From a virus (lineage: Duplodnaviria; Caudoviricetes): 64,000 bases of DNA. Position numbers and translations under genes: made by a program. A model generated the notes under the pieces. It saw only the letters and a program-made list of their open reading frames with translations, did no database searches and was not told where the DNA came from. Shown here piece after piece: positions 1-61,337 of the stretch. Within the stretch, counting starts at the first letter, position 1, and each line of letters begins with the position of its first letter. The stretch is taken from the IMG/VR virus record IMGVR_UViG_3300029288_000072, positions 1 to 64,000 of that record; one strand, given 5' to 3'.

Positions 1-172
1 AAGGGCCAAGTTTACGACCTAACCTCTTTTCAATACAACTGATACACAAAAATCCACGTTCATTATTATGGACTTTATACCATATTTCATTTTTCAGAAA
101 AAAATGTTCCCCAATTGTGGCAGTAGAAACTCCACAATCTAAACAGGGTTTAAGTTTATCTCTCTTTTTCAT
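1..172 (-). CDS. Small Cys-rich (CxxC...CxxC) phage protein, partial, runs off the left edge
   Basis: Manual translation MKKRDKLKPCLDCGVST...FLCISCIEKRLGRKLG; ATG lies 6 nt after a TTGACA-N15-TATAAT promoter. Confidence 0.7.
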   Translation of the reverse strand, partial: MKKRDKLKPCLDCGVSTATIGEHFFLKNEIWYKVHNNERGFLCISCIEKRLGRKLGP

Positions 173-205
173 AATATTATTATATGAGTATAAATGATTT
201 GTCAA

Positions 206-793
206 CTAGAAAGTATATCCGATTTCAGCAAACCATCCGATAGTATCCATACTGGCATTGATATGCTCCCGACCACCATTACTAATATGAGAGTATTCAA
301 CACCAAAACGAGTGTAAAAATCATTATAGTCAATCAGAATACCCAATTGGAAAAAGCCAGAATAGTTAACCCGAGACATTTCTTCCCGTTCTTCAATAGT
401 ATAACTATCTACAAGAACAGTATAAGTATTAATAGTCTCAAACTCATGGATTGTCTGAGGCTGACTTAAAAACATCAATCTCTCATCATTCCAAATAATA
501 GCACCACCTAACCCAACAAAAGGCTTAATATTCTTAAGACCAATATTACCATAAATCCGAACAATGGCCCTAGCTTCAATACCATCAATATTATTAATCT
601 CACACGATCCTAAACCAATACTAAAAGAAACAGGAGTATTTTCTTTTATAGTCATTATATCCAACATTACTCCCATACGAGTAACATCAACATCAAACTT
701 ACCATCATACATAGAATCGCTCATATAGGTTGAAACACCAAACTCAACCGCAACCACAGGAACAACCATAGCCATGAGGATTGCAAAGCGCAT
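206..793 (-). CDS. PagL-like (lipid A 3-O-deacylase family) outer-membrane beta-barrel protein
   Basis: Start re-called at 793 (AAGGAG SD, signal peptide MRFAILMAMVVPVVA); HISNGG matches the PagL H-x-S-N motif; C-terminal beta-signal ...IGYTF. Confidence 0.65.
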   Translation of the reverse strand: MRFAILMAMVVPVVAVEFGVSTYMSDSMYDGKFDVDVTRMGVMLDIMTIKENTPVSFSIGLGSCEINNIDGIEARAIVRIYGNIGLKNIKPFVGLGGAIIWNDERLMFLSQPQTIHEFETINTYTVLVDSYTIEEREEMSRVNYSGFFQLGILIDYNDFYTRFGVEYSHISNGGREHINASMDTIGWFAEIGYTF

Positions 794-913
794 CTCTATC
801 TCCTTATGCCTACAATTATATAAACCAATCCACCTATTGCAACACCTATTTACACTCATTTTGTTCTTTACATTCATCCTAAACATGATAATAAAAGTTT
901 AATTAGTTTAAAA

Positions 914-1138
914 TCATTTATTCAAATAATAATCATATGCTTCTTGATGTTTGTAAACTGGTAGTTGATGATGATTTAGTAGTGAGAAAAAATAAAACTT
1001 TTTCTCTGCATCATTTCTACCATGTTTTTCTGCATACGTTATTGCTAGGTTAATAATTTGTAGTTCAACTGAGTTTAAAGTAATTGGAATATATATTCCT
1101 GGGTCCATCATCCAGTGAATTGTTTTAAATGTAATCAT
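914..1138 (-). CDS. hypothetical protein
   Basis: ORF with AAAGGAA SD before MITFK. Confidence 0.6.
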   Translation of the reverse strand: MITFKTIHWMMDPGIYIPITLNSVELQIINLAITYAEKHGRNDAEKKFYFFSLLNHHQLPVYKHQEAYDYYLNK

Positions 1139-1152
1139 TTTAATTCCTTTTG

Positions 1153-1377
1153 TAAAAAGAACCACGCCAGTACCCACTAATAGGATACTGGCGTGGGTCT
1201 ACCCCCTGCAAGGGGTTGGGTTACTCCACGGTTGCAGCCGCTTTTTTCACCCTGGGGAGCTTATTTCCCCTTTAGCTTTGGTGACTCGCCCATATCAATC
1301 CTGGTTAGAAGGAGGAGGTAGATATGTCGGCACATGGGGCCGGGGCAGTAGGTTAGGCTACCTTCCCTGGGGTCGTC
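1153..1377 (-). ncRNA. Putative structured small RNA 1
   Basis: Own promoter (1384-1411), GC-rich hairpins, intrinsic terminator 1153-1197, no SD-led ORF on this strand. Confidence 0.55.
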
Positions 1378-1415
1378 TCGTATATTATATCAAAGAGTGT
1401 TCGCTTGTCAAGAGG

Positions 1416-1574
1416 TTACTTTACTTCTGGATCAAGAAAGAAATCGACCCATGTCATTTGACTACCATGCTTCTTTTGGTAGATATTAAATTGCTTATTA
1501 ATTAATAGATAAGCAAGTAAGGCGATCATCATACCAAACATAATGGTGAAAATAACCTTAATAATAGACTTCAT
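1416..1574 (-). CDS. small membrane protein
   Basis: AAGGAA SD, hydrophobic N-terminal helix. Confidence 0.6.
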   Translation of the reverse strand: MKSIIKVIFTIMFGMMIALLAYLLINKQFNIYQKKHGSQMTWVDFFLDPEVK

Positions 1575-1584
1575 TTTGTTTTCC

Positions 1585-1782
1585 TTAAAGTGGCAAGCGT
1601 TCAGCAATAGCAGTTTCAATATAATCAAGCGTTGCGGAAATAATAATATTACCATCCTTATCAACCAAATTAGCGTAAATAAAATGAGACCGATTGCCCT
1701 TTCCACGACGAATGTTTACAATCGTACACCCAACATAATCTTGAATAGGATTAATTGGATGTGGGTATGTTTTCACACTCAT
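1585..1782 (-). CDS. hypothetical protein
   Basis: Promoter and AAGGAG SD. Confidence 0.7.
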   Translation of the reverse strand: MSVKTYPHPINPIQDYVGCTIVNIRRGKGNRSHFIYANLVDKDGNIIISATLDYIETAIAERLPL

Positions 1783-1835
1783 GGGGTTCTCCTTTTATGA
1801 GAATCATTATATAGAGTATTTGTCAATGTCAAATC

Positions 1836-2048
1836 TTAAACTGCAATTCCCTTTTCGTCTGCATATTGACGAAGTTTTGAAACTTTATCATTCATAGCAT
1901 GATCATCATTAGCCATTGCATACCCAACAACCCGACCACATGCAAAAATTGCTACATTACTACTTGAAACAGATTTAAACCTAACATGCTCATCAATTCT
2001 GATATATGCAATATTTATCAAAGAATTAAAATCTGCATCGGTGGTCAT
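1836..2048 (-). CDS. hypothetical protein
   Basis: Promoter and AAGGGG SD. Confidence 0.7.
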   Translation of the reverse strand: MTTDADFNSLINIAYIRIDEHVRFKSVSSSNVAIFACGRVVGYAMANDDHAMNDKVSKLRQYADEKGIAV

Positions 2049-2084
2049 GTTTATCCCCTTGTAAGAATCATTATATGGATTGAA

Positions 2085-2285
2085 TCAGTCTGTCAAGCTA
2101 CAACCACAACAGGGACAATAATTAAAACGAATATAAACATCCGGTTCATTATGGGAATAAACCTTGGGATTATAGAAAATCCCATCCTCATTAATACTCA
2201 AACTTTCATCATCACCAACCGGATTATTAAGATATAAAGAAAAACTCTTACCAACAAACTCACAACCATCTGCATGCTTACTCAT
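2085..2285 (-). CDS. small Cys-containing protein (FNYCPCCG)
   Basis: Promoter and AGGAG SD. Confidence 0.65.
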   Translation of the reverse strand: MSKHADGCEFVGKSFSLYLNNPVGDDESLSINEDGIFYNPKVYSHNEPDVYIRFNYCPCCGCSLTD

Positions 2286-2435
2286 TCGTTTCTCCTGCAA
2301 TCATTATATGCCAATCAAATCAATTGCAACCACAAAATATTTTACACTCATCATAAACAATTTTGTTCTTTACATTCATCCTAACCATGATAATGAGTCT
2401 AAACTATTGTAAACTAATGAGTTAGTAAATGAGTA

Positions 2436-2661
2436 TAAAAAGAACCGCCCTTCCTATTCTTTTAGGAAGGACGGTTTCTACAATCCTGCCAGATTGTTAC
2501 CCATGATTAGGTTGGCAGTCCTAATCTTGGCTGATGATGATATATTCCTTGGGGGGCGCTAGCCAACAAAAGCCGTATACCCCTGTAAAATATATTCTCA
2601 TCTTTAGGGGTCGGTATTCCCGAATATGTCCCCTTTTGTGCAGAGGGTTGCTGCCCTCATA
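2436..2661 (-). ncRNA. Putative structured small RNA 2 (kissing-loop pair)
   Basis: Own promoter (2668-2694), terminator 2436-2478, two hairpins with complementary loops CUGCCA/UGGCAG. Confidence 0.65.
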
Positions 2662-2673
2662 TGCTATATTATA

Positions 2674-3051
2674 TCAAGTCTTTACGATTGTCAAGGGTTT
2701 CTTATAGCGAGCCAACACCCTTTCTCTCCAAGTCTTTGAGTATTCTCCCATAGGTGCAGTAAGATTCTTGAGAAACTTTTTAGGACAATCCCAATAGTAT
2801 GGACCCATATCCTCACTTAGAGGCTTATATCCAACTTGGCCCTTTGCAGAAAACAACAGGTCAAGATGAATATATCGGTCCATCTTATCACCTACAGTGA
2901 CTTCCATTTGCTTCCACAGACGGTTTCCACGGAGGGAAAACATCAAGCACTTGACATGGACCGGAATACCGGCTGGATTGATATGAGATTCATCCTTGGT
3001 CAATTCCCGAATCAGATTCTCACGGGTTCCAGGCTGATAGTAGGTTCCCAT
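2674..3051 (-). CDS. conserved mobile-element protein (resembles DUF6927)
   Basis: GYKPLSEDMGPYYWDCP motif and WRERV. Confidence 0.55.
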   Translation of the reverse strand: MGTYYQPGTRENLIRELTKDESHINPAGIPVHVKCLMFSLRGNRLWKQMEVTVGDKMDRYIHLDLLFSAKGQVGYKPLSEDMGPYYWDCPKKFLKNLTAPMGEYSKTWRERVLARYKKPLTIVKT

Positions 3052-3094
3052 CGTTTCCCCTTGTGAGAATGATTATATGGATTGGATAAGAATG

Positions 3095-3289
3095 TCAAAT
3101 GAACTTTTCAATCGTCTTAACCTTGCCACACTTGGAGCAAGTAAGAACAATAACTATCTTCTTACGAGTAAGTTCGTACATATCACATGCACGCATTGGA
3201 CCTTTATATCCAACCTTCCTCATATGTTCAACTACACTTTCCCCAATATTTTCAGAAACCTTATTCCACTGATGCTTGCAGAAAAACAT
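3095..3289 (-). CDS. small Zn-binding protein
   Basis: CKHQW...CSKCG; promoter and SD. Confidence 0.65.
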   Translation of the reverse strand: MFFCKHQWNKVSENIGESVVEHMRKVGYKGPMRACDMYELTRKKIVIVLTCSKCGKVKTIEKFI

Positions 3290-3333
3290 GACGGTCTCCT
3301 TATGCTAATGATTATATGGATTGGATAAGAATG

Positions 3334-3573
3334 TCAACCACGAATCAGAGGCATAACAGCAAGAACGATCCACCAAATACCAAACACTACACTGGAAACT
3401 CCACCAAGGAAACTCATAATCATACAAACAATATGACCAGTAAAAATATTACTTGTCTTGCTAAAATCCATATTCTTTGAAATATTGTTAAACCCAATTG
3501 CCATATTCAAGAAACAGAAAATAATAGAAAACACAAAAACACCTAGACTAATAAAAAACAGAATGGGAATCAT
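3334..3573 (-). CDS. two-TM membrane protein
   Basis: Two hydrophobic helices; promoter and SD. Confidence 0.7.
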   Translation of the reverse strand: MIPILFFISLGVFVFSIIFCFLNMAIGFNNISKNMDFSKTSNIFTGHIVCMIMSFLGGVSSVVFGIWWIVLAVMPLIRG

Positions 3574-3619
3574 GGTATATTCTCCTTGTAAGAATGATTA
3601 TATATGAGTTTAAACCCTG

Positions 3620-3811
3620 TCAACCCCTATTTTTCAGTTCCATACAACAATAATGAATCTCATCCTCATAATATCCATAATTAGGATTTTCAGGATAAGC
3701 GTTAATAGCTTCCCGTGCATCCTTAATAATAAACCGCAATTGTTCAACACTTTTATTCTTGAGAGACTTCATATATTCCGAATGATTCATCACCTTAGTA
3801 GGATGACCCAT
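3620..3811 (-). CDS. hypothetical protein
   Basis: Start re-called after promoter and SD. Confidence 0.7.
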   Translation of the reverse strand: MGHPTKVMNHSEYMKSLKNKSVEQLRFIIKDAREAINAYPENPNYGYYEDEIHYCCMELKNRG

Positions 3812-3855
3812 GTCTTTCCCCTTGTAAGAATCATTATATGAGTGTTCCACCGTTG

Positions 3856-4035
3856 TCAATAGCGACTTTGACTATGCTCATTGTGATCCGCATTGCCATA
3901 ATCCCAACGTTCTGCCCCTAGTTCCTTCGCCTTTTTAATAATAACAGCATGCTTATTGCCATCATAATTAGTCCAGGTATGCCATACCAATCGCCCACTA
4001 ATGTAAAATGCAGCCTTAGTCCTATATGCTATCAT
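3856..4035 (-). CDS. hypothetical protein
   Basis: Start re-called after promoter and SD. Confidence 0.65.
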   Translation of the reverse strand: MIAYRTKAAFYISGRLVWHTWTNYDGNKHAVIIKKAKELGAERWDYGNADHNEHSQSRY

Positions 4036-4137
4036 GCTTGTCCCCTTGTGCCATACAGTATATGCATCATGAACACTTGTCAACCCCTAGGATTTCCCTT
4101 TACATCCATCACAAACATGATATACGAAAAATGAGTG

Positions 4138-4303
4138 TAAAAATATACCGGATTTCTCCGGTATAAATCCCCCTCTAGTATATCAGGGAGTCGGGGCACG
4201 TACTCGCTTTCGCCGCCCTTTCGCTAGTAGATGGTGTTCTACTAACTACCGCAAACGACCTACCGGCTAAATAAAAGCCGCGCACTCGCTATTCGTTTGC
4301 TAC
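4138..4303 (-). ncRNA. Putative structured small RNA 3
   Basis: Own promoter (4310-4337); stems GCAAACGA/UCGUUUGC, CGGCU/AGCCG, UAGUAGA/UCUACUA; terminator 4138-4165; no ORF. Confidence 0.6.
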
Positions 4304-4333
4304 ACTTGTATTATATTGTCAATGATGCGCTTG

Positions 4334-4495
4334 TCAAGGACAATGAACAATAATACACTTGATAATATAAGCAAAAGCGCAAATACCTGCCACAATCAGA
4401 CTAGAAGAAAGAATACCACCTAGTCCGTTGCGGGGAATGCAAACAAATACCCCCAATGTGGCAAAAATCAGAGAAAGAATAATTAGAGCAATCAT
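4334..4495 (-). CDS. small membrane protein
   Basis: Two hydrophobic segments; promoter and SD. Confidence 0.65.
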   Translation of the reverse strand: MIALIILSLIFATLGVFVCIPRNGLGGILSSSLIVAGICAFAYIIKCIIVHCP

Positions 4496-4539
4496 TGTTG
4501 TCTCCTTGTGTGATTGATTATATTGGTTTCCAGCCCTTG

Positions 4540-4902
4540 TCAATACTCACTTGCCAGCATCAACACCCCATCAGTATAAAAGAACTTGATTTCATTTACG
4601 GACAAATCAGTGGCATCATATTCCTGACGATACAGAACCTTACAATCACCATCTTCGTAGGTCATAATCGCACGACGATCCTTCGTCACGTTCACCTTGA
4701 CGCAAACAAAGTCTTGACTCTTGACATTCTTGTGATGCGTCAGGACCGCCAGCATGTCAGTAATAACCCAACCAGCATGCTTGTGGACAAACTGAACGCC
4801 ATCCGTGTACCGAATATTCCGATACATCGGATGATAAAACATATTCTCCGATCCGAAAAACCCCGAAAGGTCCGCATCGGTGAATCGCTTGTTGCTCTCC
4901 AT
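4540..4902 (-). CDS. DUF6876-like protein
   Basis: YTDGV...AGW...TDL...EIKFF...VLMLASEY pattern. Confidence 0.6.
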   Translation of the reverse strand: MESNKRFTDADLSGFFGSENMFYHPMYRNIRYTDGVQFVHKHAGWVITDMLAVLTHHKNVKSQDFVCVKVNVTKDRRAIMTYEDGDCKVLYRQEYDATDLSVNEIKFFYTDGVLMLASEY

Positions 4903-5057
4903 GTTTGTCCCCTTGTGTCTCTCATTATATGAACCAAACAAGCAAATCAACCTAATTCTTTACACTCATTTTGTTCTTTACATCCATCACAAACATGATA
5001 TTGCACAAATGAATGTAAAATAAAAGGATAGGTATTAACCTACCCTTTTATGATTGT

Positions 5058-5399
5058 TCAATGTTCACAGACCATTATACTGCATTTTGTAGTCCACTTA
5101 GGATACTTTTTAAATCCACCCATTATATGAATGCTAATATGTAAATTACACGATTCAACATAATGACTTCGTTGAAAAATATTACTATCAAATAAATACG
5201 CATCTTTTAAATCATTAATTAGGTAGCAAATCTGATTTCTCCACTCGTTAAACGATACAATATGTCCATTATTATGCTTACGCAATTCCACCCATGCCTT
5301 GTAGAGATTGTATCCCTCTCCATCTTCCCAATTCAACGTGCGAATCTTTTCCTTAAACTCATTGATAGCATCAATAGCAACCAACCGGATGGGACGCAT
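5058..5399 (-). CDS. hypothetical protein
   Basis: Promoter, SD and terminator. Confidence 0.7.
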   Translation of the reverse strand: MRPIRLVAIDAINEFKEKIRTLNWEDGEGYNLYKAWVELRKHNNGHIVSFNEWRNQICYLINDLKDAYLFDSNIFQRSHYVESCNLHISIHIMGGFKKYPKWTTKCSIMVCEH

Positions 5400-5590
5400 G
5401 GTTGTCTCCTTGTGCCTCTCATTATATGAACCTCACAAGCAAATCAACCTATTTCTTCCCCTCTCATCCCCACTATTGACATCCATCAGAAACATGATAA
5501 TGAGTCTAAACTATTGTAAATATTATAGTAATAAAAAAATCCCCTAGTATTTCTACTAGGGGATACTCCGCTCCACTTCCTACTGGAAGA

Positions 5591-5836
5591 TTAGTAATCG
5601 TCTTCTGGATCATACTTTCCACGGGGCTTGGAACGAGGGCCATGCACCACTTCCATATGCTCCCGCCGGTATTCCTCCATCGCCACGGCAAGGATATGCC
5701 GCTTGTCACCCTCTGAAATATCACCACAATAGTCGGTGATGACTTCTCGCTCATTCTTGAACCCTGACCCCTTGGGATCATCCCAATAGTCAAAGAGGTT
5801 GTCAATCAGAGCATCGTCAATAGTCATGGTGGTCAT
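5591..5836 (-). CDS. acidic hypothetical protein
   Basis: SD AAGGGAG; terminator at 5540-5563. Confidence 0.65.
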   Translation of the reverse strand: MTTMTIDDALIDNLFDYWDDPKGSGFKNEREVITDYCGDISEGDKRHILAVAMEEYRREHMEVVHGPRSKPRGKYDPEDDY

Positions 5837-5881
5837 TTTCTCCCTTTCTAGGAGGATTTGTTATGCGTTTGATTATATGAC

Positions 5882-6085
5882 CTAGTGTAAATTGTCAAGT
5901 AGTATTTCCTGTCGTCTTGCCATTCTGATCCAAGTTCTTGCCATCCAACGATTTAGTATTTCATCAGCAATTTTTCCACACAAATCAGGAGCAATCGACT
6001 TGCGCCACCGATTCTTGAAAAGAGTCAATGCATATGAACGTTGTAAAGGTATTGAAACTAACTCACTATCTATAATTCTTGCCAT
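5882..6085 (-). CDS. hypothetical protein
   Basis: Promoter and SD. Confidence 0.65.
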   Translation of the reverse strand: MARIIDSELVSIPLQRSYALTLFKNRWRKSIAPDLCGKIADEILNRWMARTWIRMARRQEILLDNLH

Positions 6086-6156
6086 GTTTGTTTCCTTGCT
6101 CCATACATTATATACCTACAATATACAAATCAATATATTTTTAAACTCGTTTAATA

Positions 6157-6558
6157 TCAATACCAGTGTATTTTATTTTTTTGTTCAATTCTATAACCAC
6201 TATCATGCATTATATCTCTAGTTGATGAAATATTCTTAAAAAGATTCCATACTTCAAGGTTAGTTTGATCTAATGTTTGGATAAACGCCCATAGTTTTTC
6301 ATCATAAGGAAGAATAATTCCACCAGGAATTATCCTTTTACCATTTACATCAAATACTGGTTTTACACTATCATAAAAAAACTCACCATCAATTAACTTA
6401 GCAACTACAGGAGGAGAATCTTTTTCATTATCAATTAGAATAAAAAGATTTCCAATCTTTTTTGTCCACACAGGTTCCCAATTATGTCTAATAGTTTCAA
6501 CATAAATATTAGGAGTCTTAAATAATTTTTTCCACAATTCTTTGAGGAACATGTTCAC
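6157..6558 (-). CDS. hypothetical protein
   Basis: Promoter and GGAG SD. Confidence 0.7.
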   Translation of the reverse strand: MNMFLKELWKKLFKTPNIYVETIRHNWEPVWTKKIGNLFILIDNEKDSPPVVAKLIDGEFFYDSVKPVFDVNGKRIIPGGIILPYDEKLWAFIQTLDQTNLEVWNLFKNISSTRDIMHDSGYRIEQKNKIHWY

Positions 6559-6665
6559 TCCCGTATGATAACCATTATATACTGATTATACACAAATCAA
6601 CCGGTTTCTTTATACTTGACATCCATCAGAAACATGATAATGAGTTTAAATTTATTAAATGAGTA

Positions 6666-6924
6666 TAAAAAATAAACCCCAAGGATCATAACTCCTTGGG
6701 GTCTATACCCTTACGCTCAAACGCATCTATGGGGCGAACCCCTCCGCTCGCGTAGCCGATTAGGGAATAAGTGACGACTTCGGAGGAATCTGGCAACCTT
6801 CCTAGTCATCCGTGGCTTACGGTTCCACGATCCGTATTTAGGTCACTTTCAAGATTAAAGCCTTTATTAATATATTCACTTCTGCATAACTAACTCCTTT
6901 ATTCATGGGTGATATGCTTGTTGA
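6666..6924 (-). ncRNA. Putative structured small RNA 4 (pseudoknot; MQK minigene)
   Basis: Own promoter (6931-6958), H-type pseudoknot at 6811-6836, terminator 6666-6702. Confidence 0.6.
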
Positions 6925-6954
6925 GCCTACATTATATCTACCACTTTACACTTG

Positions 6955-7173
6955 TCAAGATGGTTTGTTATCCTTCTCAAACCCATATTCAATAATCCCT
7001 AATTTTTGGTCTGCATCATCTTCTGCCGCTTCTTCAGTTGGAAAAGGGCCATCCGTAAAATCTTCATCAGGATAAACACCCATATTATCCTGCCACCAAT
7101 AAGAGGCAGAAAAATTACCCCAATAATAACCATCCTCAAACTTACGAACAACTACAAAGTTGTCAGCACTCAT
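6955..7173 (-). CDS. acidic hypothetical protein
   Basis: AAGGA SD. Confidence 0.7.
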   Translation of the reverse strand: MSADNFVVVRKFEDGYYWGNFSASYWWQDNMGVYPDEDFTDGPFPTEEAAEDDADQKLGIIEYGFEKDNKPS

Positions 7174-7175
7174 GT

Positions 7176-7403
7176 TTATTCCTTATTATTATAAAAAATT
7201 ATACCATCAAGTTTACTAATACCATTAGGAGGAGTAACACTAATATTATCAACATTAACCTTTTTAAGGAAACATTTATCAATTAAATAATCTACAATCT
7301 GAAACATCTCTGGAATATAACCATGCTCACCACGATAATGAATGGTGACATTTCCGTTTTTTGTCTTATTATGACTATTGACTAACGGAAAAAACGCAGG
7401 CAT
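7176..7403 (-). CDS. hypothetical protein
   Basis: Promoter and SD. Confidence 0.65.
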   Translation of the reverse strand: MPAFFPLVNSHNKTKNGNVTIHYRGEHGYIPEMFQIVDYLIDKCFLKKVNVDNISVTPPNGISKLDGIIFYNNKE

Positions 7404-7435
7404 GTTTTATTCCTTTTCACTCATTATATTTACAC

Positions 7436-7657
7436 TCATTTCAAGTCAAGTAAAATACAATCAGCACAAATACCTTTTGCTTCCCGATCAATATGATTAA
7501 TTAATACACAATCTTCTTGTGCCTTAGTTCCCGGTTTCAAGGTGATAGGACTATAATGAACTACCGGAATATTATCAAACGTGTTTAAAATAATAGGATA
7601 TGCAGAACCCCAATTATTAATATCCTGACCCTTAGTAATCAAATGATATGTTTTCAT
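7436..7657 (-). CDS. hypothetical protein (probably leaderless)
   Basis: ATG 7 nt after TATAAT. Confidence 0.55.
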   Translation of the reverse strand: MKTYHLITKGQDINNWGSAYPIILNTFDNIPVVHYSPITLKPGTKAQEDCVLINHIDREAKGICADCILLDLK

Positions 7658-7692
7658 TTGTTCCATTATATGTTCCTTAAAACACTTGTCAA

Positions 7693-7950
7693 TTATCGCT
7701 TAGGATTATTCTGCTCTAATTCCCTAATCCTTGCCCTAAGTCTAACACTTTCTAACAACATTTGATTATATGCGTCAAGCATCCTTTTATCCGGATTAGT
7801 ATTTACAACCTTTTCAACATATTCCTTCTTAACTACTTCTTTAATAGGTGCATTCTTCTTACCATAATATGCACCAGCTATAAATGAAATGGTCACATAG
7901 ACCACCGTAATAATAGCATACTGACAAATTATTTTGCTGTCGTATCTCAT
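7693..7950 (-). CDS. membrane-anchored coiled-coil protein (probably leaderless)
   Basis: TM helix followed by coiled coil; ATG 7 nt after TATAAT. Confidence 0.6.
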   Translation of the reverse strand: MRYDSKIICQYAIITVVYVTISFIAGAYYGKKNAPIKEVVKKEYVEKVVNTNPDKRMLDAYNQMLLESVRLRARIRELEQNNPKR

Positions 7951-8103
7951 GCAAATCATTATATCATCCTAAATACCTTTGCAATCACTTTCTTACTACT
8001 TGACATCCATCATAAACATGATATAGACAAAATGAGTGTAAAAACTAATAGGTTAGTAAATGAGTATAAAAATTAAAGGGGCAGTTTTGCCCCTTTAATC
8101 TGT

Positions 8104-8469
8104 CTAGAAGTTATAGTCATAAAACTTATAGGCAACACCCATCAGAAAGGGAGTACCCTTCATCGCCCAACCACGCTTGGTCAGACGAATCTTGGTCTTG
8201 ACCGGATTGGCAGGAATCGCCAGATCATACTCCAATTCCCTCTGGTTTGTGCAATGAGCACAGAACCCACCAGGAACAAACTCTGGCTTGATCGTCTCAC
8301 ATAAAGTCGATTCCAGGGGAATCACGGTGGCAGTCTTGCCACTCTTAGAAACCTCCACCACCATGTACGGATGGCGATCCGTGTACCCGCAATAGGTACA
8401 ACCGAGACCAGGAACCGCCGCCAGGGTGCGGCTGGGGTTGGGGTCAGTCTTGGTCGGGTTAGTCGGCAT
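8104..8469 (-). CDS. phage hypothetical protein
   Basis: Promoter, AAGGAGG SD and terminator. Confidence 0.75.
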   Translation of the reverse strand: MPTNPTKTDPNPSRTLAAVPGLGCTYCGYTDRHPYMVVEVSKSGKTATVIPLESTLCETIKPEFVPGGFCAHCTNQRELEYDLAIPANPVKTKIRLTKRGWAMKGTPFLMGVAYKFYDYNF

Positions 8470-8623
8470 GTCTGCCTCCTTGTACGACTAATTATATGCT
8501 CTTTCCAATCCTGTCAATCCCCCAACTTTTGTATAACCTTCCACCGATTTCCGTTTACATCCATCCCCAACATGATATAAACCTACTACTTCAATAGTAA
8601 ATGAGTATAAAAATAAATGGTCC

Positions 8624-9004
8624 TTATGGACCATTTACCACCACCCGATACAACTGCCTTGCATACTTGGGCATCTTCCGATGCAAGAGAGCCATACCCT
8701 TCGGACCCAGCGGAGTCGCGTACAATAGCGTTTTTCCGGCTGCATGTGCATTCCAATGAGAAATGATGCGCTGGGCTAGGATCGACAATATCTTTGCGTC
8801 TACACCCGAAAAACCAACCCCATTGTAATCAACTGTCGCTTCCTTTGATACTTCCTCCATAGTCTGAAACTGAAACACACGAACACACCCCTGCATCGCC
8901 CATTTAGAATCGTTCGCTAACTTATTCTTAATAAAACTAATAGCCTCCTTCTGGCTCATCGCCAAAATGCGGTCCCTAATAGCGGCTTTACGTTCGTTGC
9001 TCAT
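8624..9004 (-). CDS. phage hypothetical protein (QT..E...NGVGF.G.DA motif)
   Basis: Promoter, leaderless start. Confidence 0.75.
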   Translation of the reverse strand: MSNERKAAIRDRILAMSQKEAISFIKNKLANDSKWAMQGCVRVFQFQTMEEVSKEATVDYNGVGFSGVDAKILSILAQRIISHWNAHAAGKTLLYATPLGPKGMALLHRKMPKYARQLYRVVVNGP

Positions 9005-9172
9005 ATCAAACTATTGTATAACCATCCTACTCATGTCAAGATCCTAAATCATCCTTGACATTCTTAAATACCATGATAACTACCTCAATGAGTTTAAAAA
9101 AACTAATACATTAGTAAATGAGTGTAAAAACTAACCCCCTCCAAGTTTCCTTGGAAGGGGTGACAATCTTTG

Positions 9173-9868
9173 TCAGTCCGCTTCTACCATGAGGCTCGCA
9201 ACCTCGGCAGGCATAACCGTTTCCTTGTCGATGGTAAGACGGTCATAGTTGCCATCCTTGAGTGACAGCATCTTGTATGGCAACATACCATCCTCGCAGT
9301 AGGTCTCTACTTCCCCCTTCGCAATAGTGAGGGGACGGCTGTTGGTCGCCTTGTATTTGCCTTCAACGTGGACCTTGCGAGACACTTCAAGCACCGAAAC
9401 CATGATGCTAGCAACAGTCGGAACCCCGTCAGCATCCAGCACCGGCACCTTGACCTTGCGACCATCTACTACTCCGTCAGTAGTGACAAGGTGGCACTTG
9501 ATCCCCTGACCGCTATGGACGTAGCACCGAGCATGGCCTTGTCGATACCCGTCTGACTCCTTATCCCCTGCGAGAGTCTTGGTCAGACTCTCAACTACGA
9601 GGTTGCGAGCCTCCTCATGGAGCGCATCAGTAGCAACGTACCCCTTCGCACGTTCCAGCATACGCTGGCAACGCTTGCCATAAGAGAATCGACTAATGAA
9701 GTTGATAGTCGAAACCCCAGAAACGATGCACTTGGGATCACTGGTGCCACTGACATAGTTGTGGACAGTGGCAAAACCACCATGCCGACAACTATCCAGC
9801 ACGTTGAGCGCATCCAGTGTGCGCTCATCAATGTTTACAAGCGTTCCGTCGAGTGTGATGCGTGGCAT
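9173..9868 (-). CDS. hypothetical protein, 231 aa
   Basis: Promoter, AAGGAGG SD and terminator 9135-9161. Confidence 0.8.
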   Translation of the reverse strand: MPRITLDGTLVNIDERTLDALNVLDSCRHGGFATVHNYVSGTSDPKCIVSGVSTINFISRFSYGKRCQRMLERAKGYVATDALHEEARNLVVESLTKTLAGDKESDGYRQGHARCYVHSGQGIKCHLVTTDGVVDGRKVKVPVLDADGVPTVASIMVSVLEVSRKVHVEGKYKATNSRPLTIAKGEVETYCEDGMLPYKMLSLKDGNYDRLTIDKETVMPAEVASLMVEAD

Positions 9869-10023
9869 GCTTGCCTCCTTGTACGACTCATTATATCAAC
9901 CAAAATCAGTTTGCAAGTATTCTTCTGTTTACAATCGTCTTCATATTTCTACTATATTAGTTTACACTTGACATCCATCTAAAACATGATAATACAAAAA
10001 CTAATCCATTAGTAAATGAGTAT

Positions 10024-10295
10024 AAAACAAAACCCCGATGGGTGATCATTCCATCGGGGTCGTTGGCAGGCTTTCGCCTTTGGTTTGGTTGCGATCCTGC
10101 ACCAGCGGTGCCCCTACGCTTTGCCATGCGTGGGAGTTTATTGCATATCCTCCGCAGCCCATCTCCCAAAACTTGCGGATTAAGCCTATGACATTTGACG
10201 GGCAGGAGTCAGCCATAGGCAACTAACCCCTATTGCCCTTCATAATCGTCGCTTTAACATTTGCCCATCCTTATAGGTTAGGCGTTCATGTGTAT
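10024..10295 (-). ncRNA. Putative structured small RNA 5
   Basis: Own promoter (10302-10328); stems GCCUAUG/CAUAGGC and CCGCA/UGCGG, AGGC-GAAA-GCCU tetraloop; terminator 10024-10060. Confidence 0.6.
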
Positions 10296-10803: not shown

Positions 10804-11622
10804 TTAAACCTCTACTTCCTGGACAGCCTCGACCGGAACCGGCTTGCCCGCCTTGAGAATCTTATCGACTGCCACCATAATAGCCTTAGCACTCTTTTCG
10901 GGAATCCGTTGGCCACCATGCAGGCTATTCCAATGCTGGATATAACCACGGGACTCGTCGCCACCCGCCAGACCTAAGACTTCCCCCACAATGTAAGCAA
11001 CCGTTTCCGCTTCAATTTCCCTAAGACTACGCTCCATCGTAGGATGTTCGGGGTTCCAATCGTTTTCCCCCGTATGACCCAGCACAATATGGGCAATCTC
11101 ATGGATCAGAGTCTTGGCAGGATGCATAGCAATCGGGGAAACTGCCACCTTGCGACCCTTGGCGTATCCCTGGCAGTTGCCATTTACCATATCATACGAA
11201 ACCCGCTCAATCCCCATCTTGTCCAAGCAACGATCCCCCTCCCAATCAACCGTATGAGTCTCATGCTTGAAACTATCAACCTCGCCACTCACAACCTCCG
11301 TCTGCGACAATGCAAACCACAGACTGCGGAATGTGAACCCAATCATACGAGGATCATCATTCTTTTCCCCCTTGCGTGCGAACAACGGCATGCACAAGGT
11401 CAGACCTTTGCTACCCTTGCGAACAACGCGACCCATCGTTTGCCAACGCTTGAAAGTAGCAATCGGACCAACTTCTATCCCCCTAATCTTCATCTGATGC
11501 ATAGCCAATAAACTATTCATAAAACTATAGTCGTGAAACATACTATAACATTGGGCAATAATGCCCGGCTTGCTAATAGCCTCGTCCAACAGAGTCTCAA
11601 ACGGGATCGGGGTGTCGTTCAT
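10804..11622 (-). CDS. ArdC-like antirestriction protein (ssDNA-binding N-domain plus zincin-like HExxH domain)
   Basis: YSFMNSLL, ATFKRWQTMGRVVRKGSKG, FALSQT, HEIAH, EIEAETVAY, SRGYIQHW. Confidence 0.8.
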   Translation of the reverse strand: MNDTPIPFETLLDEAISKPGIIAQCYSMFHDYSFMNSLLAMHQMKIRGIEVGPIATFKRWQTMGRVVRKGSKGLTLCMPLFARKGEKNDDPRMIGFTFRSLWFALSQTEVVSGEVDSFKHETHTVDWEGDRCLDKMGIERVSYDMVNGNCQGYAKGRKVAVSPIAMHPAKTLIHEIAHIVLGHTGENDWNPEHPTMERSLREIEAETVAYIVGEVLGLAGGDESRGYIQHWNSLHGGQRIPEKSAKAIMVAVDKILKAGKPVPVEAVQEVEV

Positions 11623-19184: not shown

Positions 19185-20411
19185 TTAAGTGTAAAGATGT
19201 GATATTTGGTTATCACATGATGATATTATATCATCAGATTTTACATTGTCAAGAGTCTTGTTTCCACTACCTGACTTAATGTTAGTATTATTAACACCAG
19301 AGGTCTGATATCCACAAGCGTAGATTTCCGTTAAGCCAACGGTATATATATTTTTAGCTGCATTATGATCACGATTTAATTGAAATCCACAAATATTACA
19401 TTTATAAGTTCTATTATTTAGATGTAGATCATTTTTTATATATCCACAATTTGAACATGTTTTAGAAGAAGGATACCAGCGATCAATTTTATGTAGGATA
19501 TTATTAAAAATATCTTTTTTATAAGTTAATTGTCTGATAATTTCTCCTACACATCCATCAGATGCAGATTTACCATACATTTTATTCCAAGATTTAACAC
19601 ACAAGTCTTCAATTATGATAATTTGGTTTTCATTACATAATTGTGTTGTTAATTTATGAGTAAAATCTTTTCTAATATCTGATATTTTCTTATGTAGTTT
19701 AGCTACTTTTATTTTTTGTTTTTCTCTATTTTTACTATTTTTCTTTTTTCTACTAAGACTTCGTTGGATTCTTTTTAATTTTTTGAGATTATTTTTTAAT
19801 GGTTTTGGTGAATGTATTTGATTACCATCCTGATCAGTAACTAATGTTTTTATACCAAAGTCAATACTAATTGTATTATTTGATTTTCTTTGTTTATTGT
19901 GGTTTTCTATATCAACAGAGATAGACGCAAACCATGTGTCTGCTTGTCTAGATATTACACAACTTTGGATTTTTCCAGTAAATCTTAATGGTTCTGTTAA
20001 TTTTATTTCACCAATTAACGGTACTTTAATATGTGTATCATTTATTTTAAATTTATCATTTGATAAATAAAACGAATCTCTCAATCCTTTCTTTTTGAAT
20101 CTTGGATATTTACTTTTCTTTTTGAAAAATGAATTAAAAGATTTATTCAAATACGAAAAAACTTGTTGATTAGCGTCTTTTGGACTTTCATATATCCAAG
20201 GAAATTCTGTTTCTTTTATTTTATTAAACTCTTTTTTGATTAAATTTGCATTTGGTTTAGGTAATGTATTATTACCTTTCCATTCTTTGTACATTTGTGT
20301 CCACTTAGATAATCCCCAATTATATGCAAATCTTGCACAACCACATGATTTTATAAGTTGAGATTCTTGTTCTTTATTTGGTGTAATCTCAATCTTATGG
20401 GATAAAATCAT
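19185..20411 (-). CDS. tnpB: TnpB RNA-guided endonuclease
   Basis: N-terminal GCARFAYNW, RuvC motifs IDFG / IEDL / RDHNAAKNI, Zn finger CSNCG..CNICG. Confidence 0.92.
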   Translation of the reverse strand: MILSHKIEITPNKEQESQLIKSCGCARFAYNWGLSKWTQMYKEWKGNNTLPKPNANLIKKEFNKIKETEFPWIYESPKDANQQVFSYLNKSFNSFFKKKSKYPRFKKKGLRDSFYLSNDKFKINDTHIKVPLIGEIKLTEPLRFTGKIQSCVISRQADTWFASISVDIENHNKQRKSNNTISIDFGIKTLVTDQDGNQIHSPKPLKNNLKKLKRIQRSLSRKKKNSKNREKQKIKVAKLHKKISDIRKDFTHKLTTQLCNENQIIIIEDLCVKSWNKMYGKSASDGCVGEIIRQLTYKKDIFNNILHKIDRWYPSSKTCSNCGYIKNDLHLNNRTYKCNICGFQLNRDHNAAKNIYTVGLTEIYACGYQTSGVNNTNIKSGSGNKTLDNVKSDDIISSCDNQISHLYT

Positions 20412-40326: not shown

Positions 40327-41577
40327 AGGTAGTGGGTTTGTAACTAACTCTTGCGAGTCGCTACAATAGGCTGGTTGATTTCAGCCCTTGAAATATTAAT
40401 AGCAGCATTGTAGTCTGCATTAACTTCATAACCACAAGAAACACATTTAAAGTTTTCTTGAGTTAGTCTGTTTTCTTCGCAAATATACCCACATTGACTA
40501 CACTTCTGGCTTGTATAAGCAGGATTAATATATAACACTGGAACTCCAAGTAACTTTGCTTTATAGTCAATCATTTGTCTTAATTGACCAAAAGCCCACT
40601 TACCTCTTCGTGCATTATTATCCTTCCATTCTTTAGTCCAACCTTTTTGCGGAACTTGTTTCTTGAAGTTTAGATCTTCTAATTTGATTCCAACTCCAAG
40701 TGTCTTTGCTTTTTGAACTAAACGTTTACTTATACAATGATTTGTATCTTTCTTGAATCTTGATTCTTTTTTACTTATTTTCTTTAATCTACGCTTTGCA
40801 CTTCTACTACCTTTACTTTGCAATCTTGCTTTATATGAAGTTATTTTCTTTCTATAAGTCTCTACTCTTTCTCCACTTACAACTTCACCATCAGAGCAAG
40901 TAGCAAGATTTACTATACCTAAATCTACCCCAAGGAAATCTTTAACTTTATTAGTAGGTTCTTCGCTTGTTTCAGCGAAGAATGTAACATAAAACTTCCC
41001 TTTAACTTTATCATAACTTAATTCACTTTGACAACTTAAATCTAAATCTTCTAATGACTTACGAGTTCTAAATGGTAATTGAGTTCTTTTACCCAAAATC
41101 ATAATAGATAATTCATTATCTTTTTTAATAGTTAAATTTCTACTATCGTAATCAATTGAACCTAACTCGTTAAATGTCAATACTTTATTCTTTTGATTCC
41201 AGTTTTTATAGCAATCAGTTACTTTACCTATAACTCTTACAGCAAGTTGACTTGAAAGATTAAATCTTTGTTTTATCTCGTAATATACTATTTTATGTAA
41301 ATTAACTTTATTAAAAGTTTTTGTTTCAACTGCTTTTTGACTTACCCAATCACAAGCAGAATTAAAAACTTTCATAACATTAAGGAGTTCTTGATGTTGT
41401 TTTTCGTTTGGTAATAATTTACATTTAACTGCTAACTTCATCTTTTCCTCCTTTCATACTAATATATTTATAATCGAAAAATAAAATTTGACAAACTTTT
41501 TTATTCTATTATAATAAGTAGTAGAAAGGACGGCAATTACTCCCACCACCTAAAGGTAGTGGGTTTCCTTGCCGACA
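40307..41577 (-). mobile_element. IS200/IS605 (IS1341-type, tnpB-only) element
   Basis: Subterminal hairpins CCCACTACCTTTAGGT(G/T)GTGGG at both ends. Confidence 0.85.
40344..41441 (-). CDS. tnpB: TnpB
   Basis: GVDLG, LEDL, CSQCG..CVSCG, ADYNAAINI. Confidence 0.92.
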   Translation of the reverse strand: MKLAVKCKLLPNEKQHQELLNVMKVFNSACDWVSQKAVETKTFNKVNLHKIVYYEIKQRFNLSSQLAVRVIGKVTDCYKNWNQKNKVLTFNELGSIDYDSRNLTIKKDNELSIMILGKRTQLPFRTRKSLEDLDLSCQSELSYDKVKGKFYVTFFAETSEEPTNKVKDFLGVDLGIVNLATCSDGEVVSGERVETYRKKITSYKARLQSKGSRSAKRRLKKISKKESRFKKDTNHCISKRLVQKAKTLGVGIKLEDLNFKKQVPQKGWTKEWKDNNARRGKWAFGQLRQMIDYKAKLLGVPVLYINPAYTSQKCSQCGYICEENRLTQENFKCVSCGYEVNADYNAAINISRAEINQPIVATRKS

Positions 41578-60030: not shown

Positions 60031-61337
60031 CTGTGGCAAGGAAACCCACTACCTTTAGGTGGTGGGAGGAATTACCACATCCTCCTTTCTTAATAGTGTA
60101 TCACTCAACATTATACAACATATTGTATAATATAAAAATAGTTTGTCAAATCTTATTTTCCGGATATAAATAACTATGTATTGAAGAAATAATGAGGCTA
60201 TAATGAAACTAGCAACGAGAGTAAAACTACTAGCAAACAAAAGTGAGAAAGAACAACTCACTCAAGTTATGATTGCTACTAATAGAGCCTCTAATTGGGT
60301 TGCTGAAGTTGCATTTAATAATAAAACTTTTGGTCAAGTTCAACTTCACAAACTCGTATATTACGAAATTAAGCAAAGGTTTAATCTTTCTTCTCAACTT
60401 GCTGTAAGATCAATAGGTAGAGTCGTAGATGTATATAAAAATAAAAAACAAAGAAGTAAAGTTATAAAATTTGATGAAATGAGTGCAATTGATTATGATA
60501 CTCGCAATCTTTCAATTAAAAAAGATAGTGAAATTTCCATAACAACTCTTGGAAAAAGAATTAAGTTACAATATAGAAGTCGTAAGCCATTGGAAACTTA
60601 TGAATTATGCACCCAAAGTGAATTGAGTTATGATAAAGCAAAGGGGAAGTTTTATGTTAACTTCTTCCGCATTGAAAACGAAAAAGCAAATGATGAAGTA
60701 AAAGATTTCCTCGGTGTAGATTTAGGTATAGTGAATCTTGCTACTTGTAGTGATGGTGAAGTGGTAAGTGGTGAACGAGTAGAAAGTTATAGAAAGAAAA
60801 TAACTTTACATAAAAGTAATTTACAAAGTAAAGGTAGTAGAAGTGCAAAGCGTAGATTAAAGAAAATAAGTAAAAAAGAAGCAAGATTCAAGAAAGATAC
60901 GAACCATTGTATAAGTAAGCGTTTAGTTCAAAAAGCAAAGACACTTGGAGTTGGAATCAAATTAGAAGATCTAAACTTCAAGAAACAAGTTCCGCAAAAA
61001 GGTTGGACTAAAGAATGGAAAGATAATAATGCAAGAAAGGGTAAGTGGGCATTTGGTCAATTAAGAAAATTTATTGACTACAAGGCTAAACTTATCGGTG
61101 TTCCAGTGTTATATATTAATCCTGCTTATACGAGTCAAATGTGTAGCAAGTGTGGTCATACTCACGAAGAAAATAGATTAACTCAAAGTGAGTTTAAATG
61201 TATTTCTTGTGGATATAGTGAAAATGCTGATTACAATGCTGCTATTAATATTTCAAGGGCTGAAATCAACCAGCCTATTGTAGCGACTCGCAAGAGTTAG
61301 TTACAAACCCACTACCTTTAGGTGGTGGGTAGTTGAT
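60031..61337 (+). mobile_element. IS200/IS605 (IS1341-type, tnpB-only) element, same family as 40307-41577
   Basis: Same subterminal hairpins and right end. Confidence 0.85.
60203..61300 (+). CDS. tnpB: TnpB
   Basis: RuvC motifs and Zn finger intact. Confidence 0.92.
   Translation: MKLATRVKLLANKSEKEQLTQVMIATNRASNWVAEVAFNNKTFGQVQLHKLVYYEIKQRFNLSSQLAVRSIGRVVDVYKNKKQRSKVIKFDEMSAIDYDTRNLSIKKDSEISITTLGKRIKLQYRSRKPLETYELCTQSELSYDKAKGKFYVNFFRIENEKANDEVKDFLGVDLGIVNLATCSDGEVVSGERVESYRKKITLHKSNLQSKGSRSAKRRLKKISKKEARFKKDTNHCISKRLVQKAKTLGVGIKLEDLNFKKQVPQKGWTKEWKDNNARKGKWAFGQLRKFIDYKAKLIGVPVLYINPAYTSQMCSKCGHTHEENRLTQSEFKCISCGYSENADYNAAINISRAEINQPIVATRKS

Follow-up and report, generated by a model that had tools for sequence, protein, structure and literature searches.

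Two hairpins directly precede the terminator of sRNA 2, a small RNA encoded close to the start of the genome of an uncultured phage. Their apical loops are perfectly complementary, and this complementarity is retained in the homologous RNA of a related phage (contig L011) and, after a compensated change of one base pair, in a second RNA, sRNA 1, of both phages. From this comparison of sequences, we consider it probable (about 0.65) that the two loops pair functionally. The pairing may well occur between molecules of the same type, a reading that we infer on geometrical grounds and hold with slightly less than even confidence.

The DNA analyzed here, referred to as the window, comprises the initial 64,000 nucleotides of an IMG/VR record that is 198 kb long (G000). 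Among the proteins encoded by this genome are a family B DNA polymerase that contains an intein, a gp41-like helicase, a gp5-like hub, and the two subunits of a type II topoisomerase. The helicase shows at most 30% identity to any GenBank phage and has no relative in IMG/VR. Judged by its gene content, the genome is that of a divergent T4-like phage. Its first 12 kb are organized as an array of small leftward cassettes, each preceded by its own consensus promoter, and five small RNAs had been annotated in this region. The features of sRNA 2 and of the related part of sRNA 1 are compiled in Table 1.

The -10 element and the spacer of the sRNA 2 promoter were counted by hand; a promoter scan restricted to spacers of 16-18 bp returns a shifted TAATAT. 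The extended -10 element and the stop codon of the 125-aa ORF upstream overlap. The 5' end of the transcript was inferred from the promoter and the 3' end was set at the U tract. Based on the positions of the promoter elements and the terminator, sRNA 2 should therefore be ~225 nt long, extending roughly from 2661 to 2436. A 230-nt transcript has a minimum free energy (MFE) of -90.6 kcal/mol (z = -7.1), and none of 200 shuffled sequences was as stable. In the predicted fold, a 5' hairpin (P1) is followed by the hairpin P2, by a long central hairpin with an AU-rich closing helix, and then by hairpin 1 (H1), hairpin 2 (H2), and the terminator, the stem of which spans 2476-2443 with the U tract next to it. 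Two independent assemblies with an identical sRNA 2 sequence have no gene called over it. A coding function was rejected: the ORF starting at the 5' AUG has 18 codons here versus seven in L011, and the two peptides are unrelated. Likewise, the antisense ORF across sRNA 2 lacks similarity to the antisense ORF of L011 and is not conserved. Rfam 15 gave no match in the 64 kb at gathering score. At E <= 10, a search of positions 1-10000, which included Phage_pRNA (RF00044) and the CRISPR-DR families, returned nothing that overlaps 2436-2665. We are confident that sRNA 2 is a real small RNA. It belongs to the early RNAs of this divergent T4-like phage, is structured, and has been conserved.

Table 1. 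Positions in the window of the sRNA 2 elements and of the related 3' part of sRNA 1.
Feature	Position	Strand	Basis or remark
sRNA 2 -35 hexamer TTGACA	2689..2694	-	kept in L011
sRNA 2 extended -10 TGaTATAAT	2668..2676	-	15-bp spacer to -35; same layout in L011
sRNA 2 transcript, ~225 nt, non-coding	2436..2661	-	own consensus promoter; fold z = -7.1
P1, 5' hairpin GAGGG / CAGCAA / CCCUC, contains second GGCAG (2651-2655)	2643..2658	-	predicted fold
H1, CCAAGAUUAGG / ACUGCCAA / CCUAAUCAUGG	2501..2530	-	11-position stem: 10 pairs and one A.A mismatch
Loop 1 hexamer CUGCCA	2513..2518	-	identical in L011 despite stem divergence
H2, ACAAUC / UGGCAG / GAUUGU	2480..2497	-	stem covaries with sRNA 1 copies
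Loop 2 hexamer UGGCAG, complement of loop 1	2486..2491	-	loop-loop duplex -11.0 kcal/mol
24-nt block (H2 and flanks) identical in L011	2476..2499	-	P about 3e-5 at 55% identity
sRNA 2 intrinsic terminator, 14-bp stem and U tract, directly 3' of H2	2437..2476	-	stem covaries in L011
Paralogous H1-A-H2 module, 3' end of sRNA 1	1196..1254	-	R2 13.3 bits, E 0.05 (weak score); isolated-module fold
sRNA 1 loop 1 CUGCAA; loop 2 UUGCAG	1237-1232; 1211-1206	-	loop alignment
sRNA 1 terminator, directly after its module	1162..1196	-	13-nt loop block kept, stems covary in L011

H1 and H2 are the last elements before the terminator of sRNA 2. The first-pass annotation had pointed out this pair of hairpins with CUGCCA and UGGCAG loops, and both their coordinates and their sequences proved right: the two hexamers are exact reverse complements at six of six positions. 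Both hairpins are present in the MFE and the centroid fold. In the nested ensemble, the loops are unpaired with P >= 0.99, except for a U.G closing pair in hairpin 2. Loop 1 of the window sRNA 2 has 8 nt (ACUGCCAA), and GUA lies between the listed coordinates of H1 and H2 on the minus strand. Within this single sequence, the complementarity is only suggestive. Permutation of the loop letters of sRNA 2 gave P = 0.019 for a match between any two loops and 0.005 for an adjacent pair, and the values rise to 0.22 and 0.037, respectively, over all five sRNAs. Since the single-sequence match is weak evidence, the case for loop pairing rests on the comparison of homologues described below. We rejected an ordinary nested helix of the two hexamers, because it costs +5.8 and +8.3 kcal/mol if forced in the two sRNA 2 copies (window and L011). 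Therefore, only non-nested or intermolecular pairing can make use of the complementarity.

A repeated octamer, GAAUAUAU, was likewise located as annotated, twice upstream in sRNA 2 (2540-2547 and 2590-2597) and once in sRNA 4 (6870-6877), all on the minus strand. The two copies in sRNA 2 are the two arms of the AU-rich helix that closes the central hairpin in the predicted fold. As a motif it was dismissed, being neither enriched (21 occurrences in the window versus 13.5 +/- 4.2 expected) nor conserved: the L011 homologue carries GAAUAUGG and UUAUAUAU in its place. Another 8-mer, CUGCCAAC, is found both in loop 1 of sRNA 2 and in sRNA 5 (10062-10069, minus strand), where it lies between a hairpin with a GAAA tetraloop and the terminator; it could pair with loop 2 of sRNA 2.

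L011 is a JGI metagenome contig that we reached via the neighboring 125-aa protein. It represents a phage with ~70-75% DNA identity to that of the window, and both occur in the same samples. The sRNA 2 homologue at L011 5100-5345 is 55% identical and has the same promoter and the same order of helices. Compensatory changes between the two RNAs are found in P1, P2, the central hairpin, and the terminator; P1 of L011 (GAUGG / CCAUC) differs by one compensatory pair and carries UGGCAG. The stem of H1 has also diverged: four of ten aligned pairs changed on both sides and two on one side, or five and three of nine after the gap placement by MAFFT had been corrected by hand. Both loops and the whole of H2 are unchanged. 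In L011, loop 1 is exactly CUGCCA, a bare hexaloop on an uninterrupted 12-bp stem. The 24-nt block around H2 is the only identical run of at least 8 nt inside sRNA 2 and ranks among the longest such runs across the entire 13-kb array. Over the sRNA 2 region, the strain copies L009, L010, L016, and L017 do not differ from their type sequence. Because both loops are invariant, the comparison of the two sRNA 2 sequences by itself argues for conservation, not covariation. The central domain of the L011 RNA contains an additional CUGCCA-AAA-GGCAG hairpin (L011 5200-5215), and the UGGCAG in its P1 is located at 5110-5115. That GGCAG and CUGCC recur may point to a ligand in common or to a more extensive network of pairing.

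Covariation came from a second pair of sequences. When only the two sRNA 2 modules were used to build a covariance model (R1), it matched L011 at 6810-6869 on the plus strand with 27 bits (E 4e-4 in 190 kb). In L011, this is where the counterpart of sRNA 1 has its 3' end. The enlarged model (R2) gave a weak score for the 3' end of sRNA 1 in the window (Table 1). All four copies share a common layout, consisting of H1, a single A, H2 (AAC..CU-KGCA-GG..GU), (U)AGA, and the terminator. Thus the claim that the five sRNAs are unrelated was wrong for sRNA 1 and sRNA 2, which have this two-hairpin module at their 3' ends in common. The H2 stems differ with compensation between the sRNA 2 and sRNA 1 types (ACAAUC/GAUUGU, ACCCC/GGGGU, and ACCGUC/GAUGGU). 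Both sRNA 1-type copies, in the window and in L011, carry CUGCAA and UUGCAG, which again are exact complements. Compared to sRNA 2, base 5 of loop 1 has changed from C to A and base 2 of loop 2 from G to U; these two bases are partners, so that a C-G pair is replaced by an A-U pair. When the four copies are aligned, the loop-loop helix has Watson-Crick pairs in all of its 24 cells, with one pair changed on both sides, and registers slid by one to three columns are only 17-50% paired. The sole two differences among the twelve loop positions thus sit on one pair and restore pairing, for which we estimate by our own count a chance of ~1 in 30. This covariation amounts to one evolutionary event, the split between sRNA 1 and sRNA 2, seen in two phage species, and a shuffle control on the four-row alignment (75 of 500) is weak with four sequences. 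As for the complementarity in relatives, on which the first-pass annotation had staked its proposal, both loops are kept in L011 and the change in sRNA 1 is compensated, so that the proposal was not refuted.

In every copy except the window sRNA 2, loop 1 consists of exactly six nucleotides above a closing G-C pair, and loop 2 has six nucleotides in all four; in all four minimum-energy folds a single A connects H1 and H2, and the spacing from hexamer to hexamer varies from 19 to 21 nt. The MFE fold of the full-length window sRNA 1 is without H1, and loop 1 is unpaired there with P = 0.34; in the L011 copy of the sRNA 1 type, the loops are unpaired in the nested ensemble. Cognate loop duplexes have predicted energies of -11.0 kcal/mol (sRNA 2 type) and -8.1 kcal/mol (sRNA 1 type). 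Cross-type duplexes have only four pairs, with -5.9 and -6.3 kcal/mol. In L011, the sRNA 1-type module is positioned behind a 62-aa ORF (L011 6505-6693) with no recognisable promoter between them. The two-hairpin module therefore appears, as far as its genomic placement goes, to be a portable 3' element. Its position in L011 resembles that of a 3' UTR element. The sRNA 1 terminator (1136-1205, minus strand) gives a sub-threshold Rfam match to DUF2815 RNA (22.3 bits versus a gathering score of 41.2; E 1.8), and L011 has the same 13-nt loop block, UCCUAUUAGUGGG, on a covarying stem.

No additional copies of the module were found elsewhere in the 198-kb genome, and none of the collections searched contains a homologue beyond the two phage species. 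A blastn search of GenBank phages was negative. Scanning IMG/VR for the loop pair gave no homologue, and the H2 18-mer had one chance match in a coding sequence only. The inter-cassette box was found in 13 unrelated contigs of IMG/VR. A generalised module pattern had 14 matches in the same database, all of them in the terminator of another phage or in coding sequence and none with H2. A scan of the genome contigs for the H2 19-mer was equally without a homologue. The neighboring 125-aa and 195-aa proteins occur only in the phage of the window and in the L011 species.

How could the two loops interact? In our model, the last 60 nt of sRNA 2 before its terminator would constitute one copy of the module, in which the long H1, one A, the short H2, and (U)AGA precede the terminator. 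The apical 5'-CUGCMA-3' of H1 would pair with the apical 5'-UKGCAG-3' of H2 through six Watson-Crick pairs, which would consume every nucleotide of the hexaloops (loop 1 in three of four copies, loop 2 in all four). In fully paired six-base kissing complexes, the loop-loop helix is stacked coaxially between both stems. Such a stack would place the bases of the two stems ~25 bp apart, and a 1-nt linker should be too short for this distance. We favor pairing in trans over pairing in cis because fully used hexaloops and a 1-nt linker could hardly bridge ~25 bp, a steric argument by analogy to the structures of such complexes. If H1 of one molecule kisses H2 of the next, either a closed antiparallel dimer, in which H1 contacts H2' and H2 contacts H1', or a head-to-tail chain would result. 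sRNA 1 and sRNA 2 would then represent two addresses that are one compensated pair apart (A-U versus C-G), each preferring its own kind. The two types should discriminate, because cross-pairing is restricted to four pairs and has a weaker energy. The first-pass annotation had offered a tertiary fold or oligomerisation as explanations for the complementary loops: loop pairing as such is supported by the comparison with L011 and sRNA 1, while the choice between cis and trans is an inference in which geometry favors trans. With respect to the role of the module, our guess is that it tags abundant early transcripts for self-association or stability. That it acts as a portable 3' address module, which drives RNA-only homotypic assembly into dimers or filaments during host takeover, with at least two orthogonal addresses and, in the related phage, behind a protein-coding cassette, is a more far-reaching and rather doubtful proposition.

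The conservation and covariation of the loops speak equally for pairing within one molecule. In that case, the loops of H1 and H2 would kiss in cis, forming a compact 3' domain beside the terminator, in which the kissing helix is stacked on the short H2 and the two together match the height of H1; such a domain could serve, for example, for nuclease resistance or for presenting a defined shape. The lengths agree with this arrangement, which would predict that H1 is about as long as H2 plus six: in all four copies, H2 (6-8 bp) plus six approximates the length of H1 (10-14 layers). Internal loops in H1 of the sRNA 1 type could serve as hinges. Adjacent hairpins with a six-pair kiss in cis are known (PMC9189406), and guanidine-II hairpins also kiss in cis (PMC7357161). 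We nevertheless regard the cis fold as quite unlikely, since a linker of one nucleotide is judged too short for stems placed side by side, given loops of 6 nt (8 in H1 of the window sRNA 2). Three of four H1 loops and all H2 loops consist of just six nucleotides and have no spare bases as connectors, and H1 of the L011 sRNA 2 is an uninterrupted 12-bp helix without a hinge. The cis kisses of guanidine-II and enterovirus RNAs involve longer linkers or larger loops, and the enterovirus X and Y loops have spare nucleotides.

An explanation without any mutual pairing starts from the invariance of H2, which holds for stem, loop, and flanks between the two phages. This counts against loop pairing insofar as it fits a sequence-specific ligand equally well, and it suggests sequence-specific reading. 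Each loop would then be a recognition element for something else, such as a seed region for host or phage RNAs, one of the two strands of a target helix, or the site of a protein that reads H2, and the complementarity would be a by-product. P1 of both RNAs and the extra hairpin of L011 are further places where GGCAG and CUGCC turn up, and sRNA 5 offers a single-stranded CUGCCAAC, all of which would be in line with loops that are read individually. On the other hand, the compensated change in sRNA 1 would require a matching double change in the external partner, and neither phage contains a conserved complementary site. An antisense target within the phage was rejected: G000 has no match of at least 11 nt, and the genes in which G000 and L011 show matches of 9-11 nt are not homologous. 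A dimeric DNA operator is difficult to reconcile with the variable spacing of the hexamers (19-21 nt). CUGCC/GGCAG equals the stem of type I-F CRISPR repeats, and an RNA anti-CRISPR that mimics a repeat was considered for this likeness; no CRISPR-DR model or other family of Rfam matches. Overall, we consider separate recognition elements to be unlikely. Even less credit is given to a chance complementarity that has been kept by shared descent and has no function in the loops. The chance of a family-wise match among the five sRNAs is 0.04-0.22, and the comparison comprises two phage species and a single covariation event, all of which would leave room for coincidence. Yet the loops remained unchanged while most pairs of the H1 stem changed, and the only two loop differences between the paralogues are partners that restore the pairing (~1 in 30), which makes coincidence improbable.

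Functional pairing of the two loops would place the module next to a small number of known kissing-loop systems. The loops of the phi29 pRNA pair between molecules, head to tail, resulting in dimers and higher multimers, and their sequences differ between related phages with the complementarity being kept (PMC4201828; PMC7357161). Like pRNA (RF00044), sRNA 2 is encoded by a phage and carries, within a single molecule, two complementary loops that are not palindromic. These are predicted to be accessible, they are Watson-Crick complementary, and the complementarity was kept through change, albeit in a single, modest event. In contrast, pRNA forms four pairs and has a three-way junction, whereas sRNA 2 would form six pairs between tandem hairpins linked by one nucleotide. 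Moreover, pRNA belongs to the packaging motor of ~20-kb phi29-like phages, while sRNA 2 has an early promoter in a ~200-kb T4-like phage. Without a match to RF00044 even at E <= 10, sRNA 2 is not a member of the pRNA family. Domain III of the bicoid 3' UTR also has six Watson-Crick pairs between complementary, non-palindromic loops of the same RNA, and its products are closed dimers or open multimers (PMC7357161). It differs in being a eukaryotic mRNA localisation signal that acts with Staufen, and one of its partners is an internal bulge. In the MoMuLV SL1-SL2 dimer (SL-C/SL-D), each hairpin kisses the other type of hairpin on the partner molecule, 1 with 2' and 2 with 1' (PMC7357161; PDB 2L1F cited there). 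These hairpins are likewise adjacent and the topology is the same as in the proposed closed dimer, but MoMuLV has identical GACG tetraloops with two pairs per contact and uses them for retroviral genome dimerisation.

The X/Y/K domain of the enterovirus 3' UTR resembles the module in its adjacent hairpins of unequal length and six-pair loop-loop complementarity; the X/Y interaction is an intramolecular six-pair kissing helix stacked on the shorter stem (PMC9189406). This domain is the origin for minus-strand synthesis of an RNA virus, and, unlike its loops, those of the module are bare hexaloops (loop 1 in three of four copies, loop 2 in all four). ROOL, GOLLD, OLE, and short self-assembling bacterial RNAs were identified by cryo-EM as RNA-only homo-oligomers with kissing loops among their contacts (PMC12286853; bioRxiv 10.64898/2026.07.01.735769). 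They are non-coding RNAs as well, and several of them are phage-associated; their families and architectures are unrelated to sRNA 2, and none of them matches the window. By analogy, the module would be expected to work most like pRNA or bicoid domain III. sRNA 2 represents a new RNA family, in which a known principle of self-association would be realized in a new form.

Only a few natural RNAs self-associate via complementary loops; pRNA, bicoid, and the retroviral dimer sites belong to them, joined recently by ROOL, GOLLD, and some short bacterial RNAs. The module described here is compact (60 nt), has bare hexaloops, and exists in two natural variants with predicted orthogonality, which means that nature already supplies the compensatory mutant. 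If the proposed pairing in trans is true, it would provide a natural programmable system of RNA self-association outside the phi29 packaging motor and could be employed as a novel building block in RNA assembly. Pairing in trans would, moreover, give a first indication of what the presumably highly expressed small RNAs do in the region of a T4-like phage that is devoted to host takeover. If the loops pair in cis instead, they would represent a minimal tertiary motif beside a terminator.

A few additional observations concern the surrounding sequence. Two blocks of 118 nt (window 4574-4691; L011 1-118) and 77 nt (window 1-77; L011 7999-8075) are 100% identical between the phages, which otherwise share ~70% identity. 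Both phages are present in the same samples (ERZ27247363 and SRR8542065), and the identical blocks suggest that they may have recombined recently. The window contains three genes for TnpB/IS605 OrfB-like transposases (phrog_506) at 19185-20411, 40344-41441, and 60203-61300; deducing the host from the TnpB-like gene was abandoned, since its relatives are at most 41% identical, are spread across many phyla, and are thus uninformative. The ORF at 206-886 (minus strand) has no PHROG match, and a search of 5.8 billion proteins yielded a single relative, the copy in L011 (61% identity). A 272-aa ORF at 10804-11622 holds the sequence HEIAHIVLGH, an HExxH metallopeptidase-like motif, at 11085-11114 (minus strand). 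The intein of the family B DNA polymerase (G000 173398-176547; L006 3398-6547, minus strand) corresponds to PF14890 and occupies residues 596-771. Finally, a 609-aa protein (G000 194807-196636; L007 4807-6636, plus strand) contains a segment similar to sigma-70 region 1.1 (PF03979, E 7e-7).
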